From a virus (taxonomy: Duplodnaviria > Heunggongvirae > Uroviricota > Caudoviricetes): 46,256 bases of DNA. Each line of letters starts with the position of its first letter. The stretch's first letter is position 1. Made by a program: the position numbers and the translations under genes. The notes below the pieces were generated by a model. It worked only from the letters and a program-made list of their open reading frames with translations. It ran no database searches and was not told where the DNA came from. The DNA lies in IMG/VR virus record IMGVR_UViG_2579779052_000002; one strand, given 5' to 3'. Positions 26,852-27,543 of this stretch are shown here, piece by piece.

Positions 26852-26956
26852 GGATATTTATCAGGATTTATCGGTTTCTGAGCCCTGGATATGTTTATCA
26901 GTTCCAGCCTGTTGCCTCAGGCTGCTAACAGGTCAATACAATCATGAGGATTATTT

Positions 26957-27229
26957 ATGGACAATAACACCATTTCTCTACAGGAGTTGCTCGACAGCAT
27001 TTCCAGGCTTCGGGAAGACGTGAATACCCTTACCGTCGCCTTCTCATATCTGGCATTCTCAATTCCAAGGGAACAGATGCAATCAACGCTGGCATCAATC
27101 CAGTTTGAATCATGCAATCCCAAATGGTCTCAGGAACAACAAGACTCTTTCAGGCGGCTTGCTGTATTACTGGATGAAAAATATGCTGGTAAAATTACCA
27201 TTTCGGCGGACTCTTCAGAGAACCCGTAA
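26957..27229 (+). CDS. hypothetical protein (90 aa), opposite strand within lysis cassette
   Basis: ATG with GAGGA RBS at -8; no recognisable motif. Confidence 0.4.
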   Translation: MDNNTISLQELLDSISRLREDVNTLTVAFSYLAFSIPREQMQSTLASIQFESCNPKWSQEQQDSFRRLAVLLDEKYAGKITISADSSENP

Positions 27230-27539
27230 TTATTCCCGGTAGTTTTCCTCTGTAGGTTATCAACACATCCTGCGCCTCTAAAATTACGGGGCGCTTTTCC
27301 GGCGACTGCTCATCCCCTTCACATAACCCGGCAGCAACATCCAGGAAGACCTGTCTGATGCTCCTTCTGGCTGCTGCCTCATAAAACTCCAGCGCGGCAC
27401 CTTCAACACGGTCCAGCGAGATGTCCAGGTCAAAAATTTCACCGTCAAAGCGTTTTTTGTCCCGTAACGCTAAAGTTACCGTAACTTTATTCTCAAAATT
27501 GCGGATCCCTTTCACAATCAGTTCATAGTTTTGAGTCAT
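27195..27539 (-). CDS. hypothetical protein (114 aa) between holin and endolysin
   Basis: ATG with GGGGAGAG RBS, immediately after holin stop; possibly related to the E. coli YdfR/DUF1327 family found at this position in cryptic prophages (from memory, unverified). Confidence 0.55.
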   Translation of the reverse strand: MTQNYELIVKGIRNFENKVTVTLALRDKKRFDGEIFDLDISLDRVEGAALEFYEAAARRSIRQVFLDVAAGLCEGDEQSPEKRPVILEAQDVLITYRGKLPGIITGSLKSPPKW

Positions 27540-27543
27540 TGAA

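Follow-up and report, generated by a model that had tools for sequence, protein, structure and literature searches.

The window, that is, the whole 46,256-nucleotide stretch of caudoviral DNA in IMG/VR record IMGVR_UViG_2579779052_000002, is from an E. coli prophage and carries a lysis cassette in which two small genes separate the pinholin gene S from R, the gene of a signal-anchor-release (SAR) type endolysin. One is a 114-aa open reading frame (ORF) on the late-operon strand, a member of the ydfR family, and the other is a convergent 90-aa ORF on the opposite strand, here called orf90. We found that orf90 is a genuine coding gene under purifying selection and that it is carried, against the direction of the late operon, on an insert that has moved between several genetic contexts. 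The reading that we favour, and consider moderately probable, is that orf90 is a moron with its own weak promoter, active while the late operon is silent, that it encodes a small binding protein unrelated to lysis, and that ydfR is a late-operon passenger probably targeting RNase E. The features on which this reading turns are the following.

26957-27229, plus strand: orf90, 90 aa, Ybl58 / phrog_2411 family (phrog_2411 E 1e-58 over residues 1-90 of 90)
26914-27203, plus strand: insert of ~290 bp, approximate extent from the alignment against the colinear phages vB_EcoS-733R4 and Stx2_EH2201
27195-27539, minus strand: ydfR-family gene, 114 aa, DUF1327, starting 4 nt past the S stop
27544-27759, minus strand: S, S21-type class II holin (pinholin); PF04971 'P21 holin S' E 9e-33; phrog_9876 and phrog_20, holin
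26318-26851, minus strand: R, SAR-type lysozyme; PF00959 E 1e-23; phrog_7, endolysin

The cassette therefore reads S21-type pinholin (minus), 114-aa ORF (minus), convergent 90-aa ORF (plus), SAR-type lysozyme (minus) and then Rz/Rz1, and the first-pass annotation, which had been made from the sequence alone, agreed in order and coordinates with the ORF table and the sequence to the base. The two extra ORFs overlap by 35 nt (27195-27229), and 105 nt lie between the start of R and the ATG of orf90. A strong ribosome-binding site had also been ascribed to the plus-strand ORF, and a Shine-Dalgarno sequence, GAGGA, was indeed located at 26946-26950, 6 nt ahead of the ATG. The homology and hidden Markov model (HMM) searches that the annotation had proposed for both proteins gave clear assignments, YdfR/PF07041 for the 114-aa protein and phrog_2411/Ybl58 for the 90-aa protein.

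orf90 as a coding gene on a mobile insert

The coding nature of orf90 was evident from its diverged copies. Among seven copies, down to 58% identity, dN/dS in the orf90 frame was 0.11-0.39 with a clear third-position excess, the frame was open in all seven, some of them with dS > 1, and both the start codon and the Shine-Dalgarno sequence were kept. Ratios in the other frames were near or above 1, except in the antisense frame that shares wobble positions, where the ratio was low and stops occurred in 5 of the 7 copies. The minus-strand ORF at 26917-27123 was rejected as a true gene on these grounds, its low pN/pS being explained by the shared wobble positions. An intact 90-aa frame was present in 83 of the 83 related loci that have orf90 in this slot, and the 105-nt spacing was retained in 81 of them; all 77 partners that could be read were 114-aa YdfR proteins ending in PPKW. 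The geometry around orf90 was likewise invariant in 80 viral contigs.

The product is annotated as a hypothetical protein by PGAP (WP_000369850.1), and the identical sequence is named Ybl58 in UniProt. Membership in this family rests on the profile match, the similar length and the aligned motifs AFSYLAF..P and ES.N..WS..QQ.SF. Escherichia, Shigella and Citrobacter have homologs whose length hardly varies, and remoter ones were found elsewhere; an HMM search of 1.84 billion representatives returned only 19 clusters of the family, of similar length, all unannotated and including other genera. These observations also bear on the explanation that the 343 nt between ydfR and R are non-coding spacer or decayed sequence and that the annotated gene is an artefact of gene callers. 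The absence of a known domain and of literature, the mediocre confidence of the AlphaFold2 model and the existence of a few frameshifted 94-aa variants would fit such an artefact. The low dN/dS with its third-position excess, the frame kept open beyond dS 1, the conserved start and Shine-Dalgarno sequence, the 19 clusters and the 83 intact slot copies all speak against it, and we regard it as extremely improbable.

The orf90 product, of 10.2 kDa, is acidic (pI 4.5; grand average of hydropathy -0.43) and was modelled by AlphaFold2 as four helices with a mean confidence (pLDDT) of 67. No transmembrane segment was found in it, the maximum 19-residue Kyte-Doolittle score being 0.75, compared with 1.70 for S and 1.74 for R. 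Lysis regulators (antiholins, and modulators of holin or endolysin such as S107, LydB and RI) carry a transmembrane segment or signal sequence for membrane or periplasmic targeting, which orf90 lacks, and an antiholin-like membrane protein was rejected for want of a hydrophobic segment. The proposal that orf90 could modulate lysis found no support, and some evidence is against it: the protein has no membrane segment, and the gene stays intact where lysis genes have decayed or are absent. Profile searches of Pfam and NCBIfam gave no significant match (only an insignificant 13.7-bit hit to 'anti-silencing Mip'), PADLOC gave none at E up to 1 for either the orf90 product or YdfR114, and no known toxin, antitoxin or anti-phage defence model was matched. 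Neither a sequence-profile search of the PDB nor a Foldseek search of the pLDDT-67 model against PDB and BFVD returned a relative of known function. In short, orf90 belongs to no characterised protein family, and thousands of genomes already list it as a hypothetical gene.

That orf90 sits on an insert is seen by comparison with colinear phages. In vB_EcoS-733R4 (ydfR of 116 aa) and Stx2_EH2201 (114 aa), ydfR is directly followed by R without the ~290 bp; the boundaries of the insert are clean, and both flanks are common to phages without orf90. With a GC content of 43%, the insert lies well below S, R and Rz, which have 53-55%. Presence or absence between the same flanking genes and a deviating base composition are the marks of a moron, and orf90 shows both. 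It was found in 1207 of 5426 complete E. coli genomes (22%), including BL21(DE3), CFT073, UTI89 and ST131 strains; the allele of BL21(DE3) and CFT073 is 86% identical to that of the window.

Moreover, orf90 homologs occur outside this slot. Beside iha on a chromosomal island (L096 3033-3305), a fragment of ~470 bp survives that consists of the 5' tip of R, the spacer, an intact 90-aa ORF and a hairpin with a T-run, while R and ydfR are destroyed and only relics of them remain. The gene iha encodes an adhesin/siderophore receptor, and remnants of insertion sequences surround this copy. On a 78-kb plasmid, an intact homolog lies beside an autotransporter gene among insertion sequence remnants (L095 3012-3281). 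The nucleotide identity of these two homologs is about 72%. A Citrobacter prophage has an intact homolog ahead of unrelated holin and endolysin genes, next to HicAB. Remote Ybl58 homologs were found on the opposite strand between the tail genes M and L, near terminase genes and in non-phage chromosome.

The slot between S and R receives other genes as well. Three other opposite-strand ORFs, without BLASTP similarity to orf90, occupy it in further genomes:

86-aa ORF, opposite strand, after ydfR176: 314 genomes
104-aa gp06 (phrog_1853), opposite strand, after ydfR268 in Stx2 phage 86 and O104:H4 strains: 90 genomes
91-aa ORF, opposite strand, after ydfR161: 45 genomes

The pairs ydfR176/86-aa, ydfR161/91-aa and gp05/gp06 of the Stx2-converting phage 86 share with the window the succession of S, a YdfR variant with residues 1-112 in common, a convergent small ORF, a conserved spacer and R. 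They differ in that their small ORFs are not homologous to orf90 and their YdfR proteins are extended at the C terminus by long, differing segments. In S21-type cassettes the S-R gap is a hot spot, with at least four unrelated opposite-strand genes. The first-pass annotation had called an opposite-strand gene inside a lysis cassette unusual; given the prevalence of orf90 and of the other slot ORFs, such a gene in the S-R gap is nothing out of the ordinary for an E. coli prophage. Integron-like cassettes were considered and rejected, no integrase being nearby.

YdfR, its C-terminal tail and the convergent pairing

The 114-aa protein belongs to the YdfR family. It matched PF07041 with 145.2 bits (cutoff 25; E 7e-43) over residues 1-111 and phrog_406 with E 4e-68, and an identical protein, WP_000193278.1, is named 'YdfR family protein' by PGAP. 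Residues 1-74 are 81% identical to K-12 YdfR (P76160); the homology to K-12 ends at about codon 72 and resumes 9 nt before the ATG of R. As expected for the family, the gene lies between holin and lysozyme genes in the window, in the K-12 Qin prophage and in the 80 viral contigs. The Qin arrangement essQ-ydfR-rrrQ has the same order of S21-type holin, ydfR and SAR-type lysozyme, with ydfR 4 nt past the holin stop. The K-12 protein, of 103 aa, departs from that of the window after residue ~72 and is without the GSLKxPP tail; K-12 Qin also has no opposite-strand gene. Of 5426 complete E. coli genomes, 4305 (~79%) were matched by the 692-bp region between S and R, so ydfR is among the commonest passenger genes of S21-type lysis cassettes; in the collection of 50,697 phage records it was present in 370.

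The first-pass annotation had allowed that the 114-aa ORF might turn out to be a common conserved lysis-cassette gene of known function. Common and conserved it certainly is, whereas its function is only starting to emerge: residues 1-72 of K-12 YdfR are reported to bind the N-terminal catalytic half of RNase E, as judged from a two-hybrid assay and co-purification, and the same work reports RNA co-purifying with the K-12 protein and essentially no expression of it in standard growth (2026 study, PMC13232886). The maximum 19-residue Kyte-Doolittle score of YdfR114 is 0.69, and like orf90 it does not show the membrane targeting of lysis regulators. In a separate observation, the remote Ybl58 homolog P0197 lies in non-phage chromosome in the order rne - pyrC-like - dinI - orf92 - bssS (L105 1-3779). 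That it lies close to the RNase E gene is probably coincidental, yet worth noting in view of the connection of YdfR with RNase E.

YdfR proteins of 103, 104, 114, 116, 161, 176, 183, 196 and 268 aa were found. Most variants share residues 1-112 and then diverge, with a common linker and tail of the form ...SPEKRPVILEAQ.V.ITY.GKLPG.ITGSLK.PP, which is kept among the variants of 114, 116, 176, 183 and 268 aa. The 196-aa variant (P0109) has an internally duplicated N-terminal domain. In the window the linker and tail are encoded as follows, the final 11 codons and the stop of ydfR being antisense to the 3' end of orf90.

27195-27320, minus strand: linker and C-terminal tail of YdfR, residues ~74-114, terminating in ...GKLPGIITGSLKSPPKW; not in K-12 YdfR

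The proteins that converge with Ybl58 genes end in a similar peptide across distant contexts, and their nucleotides differ, so the constraint lies on the peptide:

YdfR114 of the window: ...GKLPGIITGSLKSPPKW; also quoted as ...IITGSLKSPPKW and stop
Citrobacter partner of 238 aa: ...GKIRNEKITGSLRVPMKL; also quoted as ...KITGSLRVPMKL and stop
L098 partner of 71 aa: ...GNIFSDQIFGDLKKPPSY; also quoted as ...FGDLKKPPSY and stop
L086 partner: ...RIIGSLITPPE
L101 partner: ...RLTGDILIPLES and stop
L107 partner: ...REGKLILRDGSLVSF; also quoted as ...LRDGSLVSF and stop

The conserved tail leaves room for an alternative in which Ybl58 and its partner are functionally paired. Here orf90 and the convergent YdfR-type gene would form one functional two-gene module in which Ybl58 recognises the tail ...G-K-L-x-x-x-I-T-G-S-L-K-x-P-P-x-x of the late-expressed partner. 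Made from the prophage, Ybl58 would neutralise the RNase E-binding YdfR, act as its chaperone or serve as its antidote, in the manner of a toxin-antitoxin or effector-immunity pair. Besides the conservation of the tail as protein, it is favoured by an HMM of the YdfR tail, whose top ranks among 1088 ORF segments were mostly Ybl58-convergent, by the tail-gene slot, which received both genes together, by the long YdfR variants, each of which has its own, different opposite-strand partner, and by orphan Ybl58 genes with decayed partners, which resemble orphan antitoxins. On the other side, the individual HMM E-values are weak (0.025 to 3), the tail is of low confidence in AlphaFold2, and no PADLOC or toxin-antitoxin family was matched. 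YdfR with the same tail is widespread without an opposite-strand gene (116 aa in 733R4, 114 aa in Stx2_EH2201), and Ybl58 stays intact without a partner, which argues that each of the two genes can stand alone. We think a functional pairing unlikely. The wider proposal that Ybl58 and the GSLKxPP tail of its partner, here the RNase E-binding YdfR, make up a mobile two-gene module, expressed from a shared, structured leader 'platform' that also drives unrelated slot ORFs, appears decidedly unlikely to us. If it were true, cassettes for prophage-expressed neutralisers or regulators of late-expressed effectors would be exchanged at the S-R slot, and control of host RNA decay would be linked to the lysis operon.

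Candidate transcription signals, structured leader and the proposed role of orf90

The favoured reading, an autonomous moron, calls for signals by which orf90 could be transcribed on its own. The following candidates were located around the gene.

26883-26895, plus strand: conserved element CCCTGGATATGTT, in which TATGTT (26890-26895) is a candidate -10 for orf90
26905-26924, plus strand: leader hairpin CAGCCTG-TTGCCT-CAGGCTG, 33 nt upstream of the orf90 ATG; folds in both orientations
27272-27298, plus strand: terminator-like hairpin GCGCCT...GGGCGC with TTTT, 43 nt past the orf90 stop; putative terminator
Leader sites in relatives: L005 3925-4003, L086 72-155, L098 3927-4003, L101 3421-3503, L103 761-823, L107 381-458 and, on the minus strand, L092 3192-3270

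Upstream of Ybl58 genes, the element CCCTGGATATGTT was found in all contexts, among them the window, the iha island, Citrobacter and L098; unrelated slot ORFs are preceded by it as well. A structured leader was also found upstream of Ybl58-family genes and of unrelated slot ORFs. In the relatives it is a two-helix leader downstream of the element, in which an outer stem UCAGCC/GGCUGA encloses a variable, covarying hairpin and is followed by UUAAC and an AGGA Shine-Dalgarno sequence. It is 95.5% paired, with compensatory changes in six pairs, a value reached by none of 500 shuffles. Several of its G.U pairs would be mismatches on the other strand, which favours a plus-strand RNA. The leader of the window retains only the conserved outer stem and misses the inner hairpin. 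The family leader is not in Rfam, and a search of 25000-29000 with the Rfam models gave no match. A CsrA site in the GGA-containing leader loop was dropped as speculation only.

The hairpin at 27272-27298 is embedded antisense in the ydfR codons for EKRPVILEA. In the iha fragment, homology stops just past this hairpin, and there it is a perfect stem and the minimum free energy (MFE) structure; because the fragment ends just beyond it, the hairpin is a plausible terminator. Spacer element, leader and hairpin fit an autonomous transcription unit without proving one.

From these elements we propose the following mechanism. The ydfR gene belongs to the late operon (same strand, 4 nt past S), its product is made with the lysis proteins, and the N-terminal beta-beta-beta-alpha domain of its product probably binds the catalytic half of host RNase E, as proposed from the homology to K-12 YdfR. 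The self-contained, low-GC orf90 moron of ~290 bp, with a good Shine-Dalgarno sequence and its 90-aa ORF on the opposite strand, would be transcribed rightward from a weak promoter in the 105-nt spacer between R and orf90, for which CCCTGGATATGTT is the candidate. Its mRNA would begin with the stem-loop leader and may end at the hairpin and T-run that lie antisense within ydfR. In this way orf90 could be expressed from a repressed prophage while the Q-dependent late operon is silent. The product would be a small acidic, soluble, helical protein, most likely acting by binding another protein, and would have no part in the action of holin, endolysin or spanins. Of the earlier suggestion of an independently expressed moron, then, the real gene and the autonomous insert stand and make it the best-supported reading, whereas promoter, terminator and expression from the repressed prophage are candidates and predictions.

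Several observations weigh against this reading. The consensus scan found no sigma-70 promoter upstream of orf90 and no orf90 terminator; the candidate -10/-35 is weak, and the hairpin at 27272-27298 is neither the MFE fold in the window nor called by the scan. The covariance model of the family leader (R1) detected neither the reduced leader of the window nor any further copy within the window (best E 0.39). Convergence and overlap with a GSLKxPP-tailed gene recur across distant contexts, which suggests that orf90 is not fully independent of its neighbour. Phage isolates nearly lack orf90, which occurs in 3 of 50,697 records, and many of its carriers may therefore be defective or rarely induced prophages. 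Its product has no sequence, profile or fold relative of known function in Pfam, NCBIfam, PADLOC, PDB, BFVD or the search of 1.84 billion representatives. In the literature found, neither the gene nor its accession numbers are mentioned and there is no report of expression; searches under Ybl58, DUF1327 and the WP accession numbers yielded nothing on function, and a paper on defence by Gifsy prophages proved unrelated.

The position of orf90 raises a further alternative, in which the effect would be in cis and the protein secondary. Convergent transcription and antisense RNA from the orf90 unit, along with the lost translational coupling of ydfR to R, would adjust the expression of R, Rz and Rz1 or silence it, and would thereby set lysis timing or suppress leaky lysis in lysogens. 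It is consistent with the orientation of the small gene, which in every phage context runs against the late operon and overlaps the late gene upstream of it at the 3' end of that gene, and with the unrelated ORFs of the same orientation in the slot. In K-12 Qin, moreover, the ydfR stop overlaps the start of rrrQ (ATGA, L003 4055-4058), unlike the window, where R lies 343 nt downstream with no evident Shine-Dalgarno sequence. However, purifying selection acts on orf90 at the protein level, and intact copies are kept where no lysis genes remain. Q-antiterminated late transcription is established lambda biology and would be expected to override a weak convergent promoter. We consider an effect in cis very unlikely.

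Lambda-type morons such as bor, next to Rz, are opposite to the late operon and are expressed in lysogens, and a bor homolog is annotated beside Rz in a related phage record. As an analogue, bor is the nearest well-known counterpart of orf90 beside lysis genes. Both are small opposite-strand accessory genes at the lysis genes, variably present in colinear phages and of deviating composition. In contrast, the bor product is a lipoprotein known for its serum-resistance phenotype, and the gene is situated outside the S-R-Rz block, whereas Ybl58 is soluble and predicted to be helical, lies between S and R, overlaps ydfR and has promoter and terminator candidates only.

What makes orf90 somewhat more interesting is that its slot is a hot spot, that the structured leader is shared and that the tail of its partner is conserved. 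About a fifth of E. coli genomes carry at this position an unstudied small gene that is selectively maintained, the genes of the slot share an upstream leader with covariation support, and the neighbouring YdfR is newly tied to RNase E. Should Ybl58 turn out to target YdfR or host RNA decay, it would offer a handle on the role of these very common late-operon passengers.

The lysis cassette and its surroundings

The remaining genes form a standard set. S matched PF04971 with 112.5 bits (cutoff 26), begins with MYQMEK, that is, with an M1/M4 dual start, is 79% identical to K-12 EssQ and has a transmembrane-like segment (the 1.70 given above is its maximum Kyte-Doolittle score over 19 residues); the profile match and the MYQM dual start sustain the call of an S21-like pinholin. 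R matched PF00959 with 84 bits and is 88% identical to K-12 RrrQ. Its residues 9-27, LSAAVLALIAAGAPAPDIL, are weakly hydrophobic (Kyte-Doolittle 1.74), so that a lysozyme domain is joined to an N-terminal, weakly hydrophobic Gly/Ala-rich segment in place of a cleavable signal. This is consistent with a SAR endolysin, as had been suggested, and release from the membrane is predicted. R starts 343 nt past the ydfR stop with no recognisable Shine-Dalgarno sequence, the upstream sequence being …GATAAATATCC-ATG (window 26852-26860). Beyond R, three further features of the late-operon strand follow, two of them ORFs lying between R and Rz (25775-26240).

26028-26240, minus strand: 70-aa ORF, phrog_6632, hydrophobic segment with Kyte-Doolittle 2.19
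25775-26047, minus strand: 90-aa ORF, phrog_3246, hydrophobic segment with Kyte-Doolittle 1.90
25208-25759, minus strand: Rz spanin with embedded Rz1 (25270-25455); PF03245 E 6e-49; phrog_13

As small membrane proteins with strong hydrophobic segments, the products of the 70-aa and 90-aa ORFs between R and Rz are better candidates for lysis modulators than orf90. The PHROG match of Rz begins at residue 29 of the listed ORF, and M29 is thus likely to be its start; the Rz1 ORF carries a lipobox-like VVSAC.

In the canonical phage 21 cassette, S and R are direct neighbours. The window resembles it in the PF04971 holin with a dual start, the weakly hydrophobic N-terminal segment of the endolysin and the embedded spanins, and differs from it in the two extra genes between S and R and the two small membrane-protein ORFs between R and Rz. 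The cassette is therefore of the phage-21 / Qin type and carries passengers. For lysis biology the consequences are small, as the pinholin, SAR endolysin and spanins are the standard set to which passengers have been added.

In one viral contig (L034 3174-4487), the lysis region is rearranged and partly duplicated, in the order S, ydfR116, truncated R, an Rz fragment fused across the 3' end of orf90, orf90 and full R; this is probably a recombinant of two cassettes. Directly upstream of S in the window lies an ORF of 626 aa (27910-29790, minus strand). For the equivalent gene, the annotations of Stx2 phage 86 and Stx2_EH2201 give a SASA-family / YjhS 9-O-acetyl-neuraminic acid esterase. Between this esterase gene and S, the late-operon strand has a terminator-like hairpin with a T-run (27799-27827, minus strand; AGAGCCATCAGTACTTAACTGGTGGCTTT TTTTATT), one of only two terminator calls that the promoter/terminator scan made in 26300-28000.

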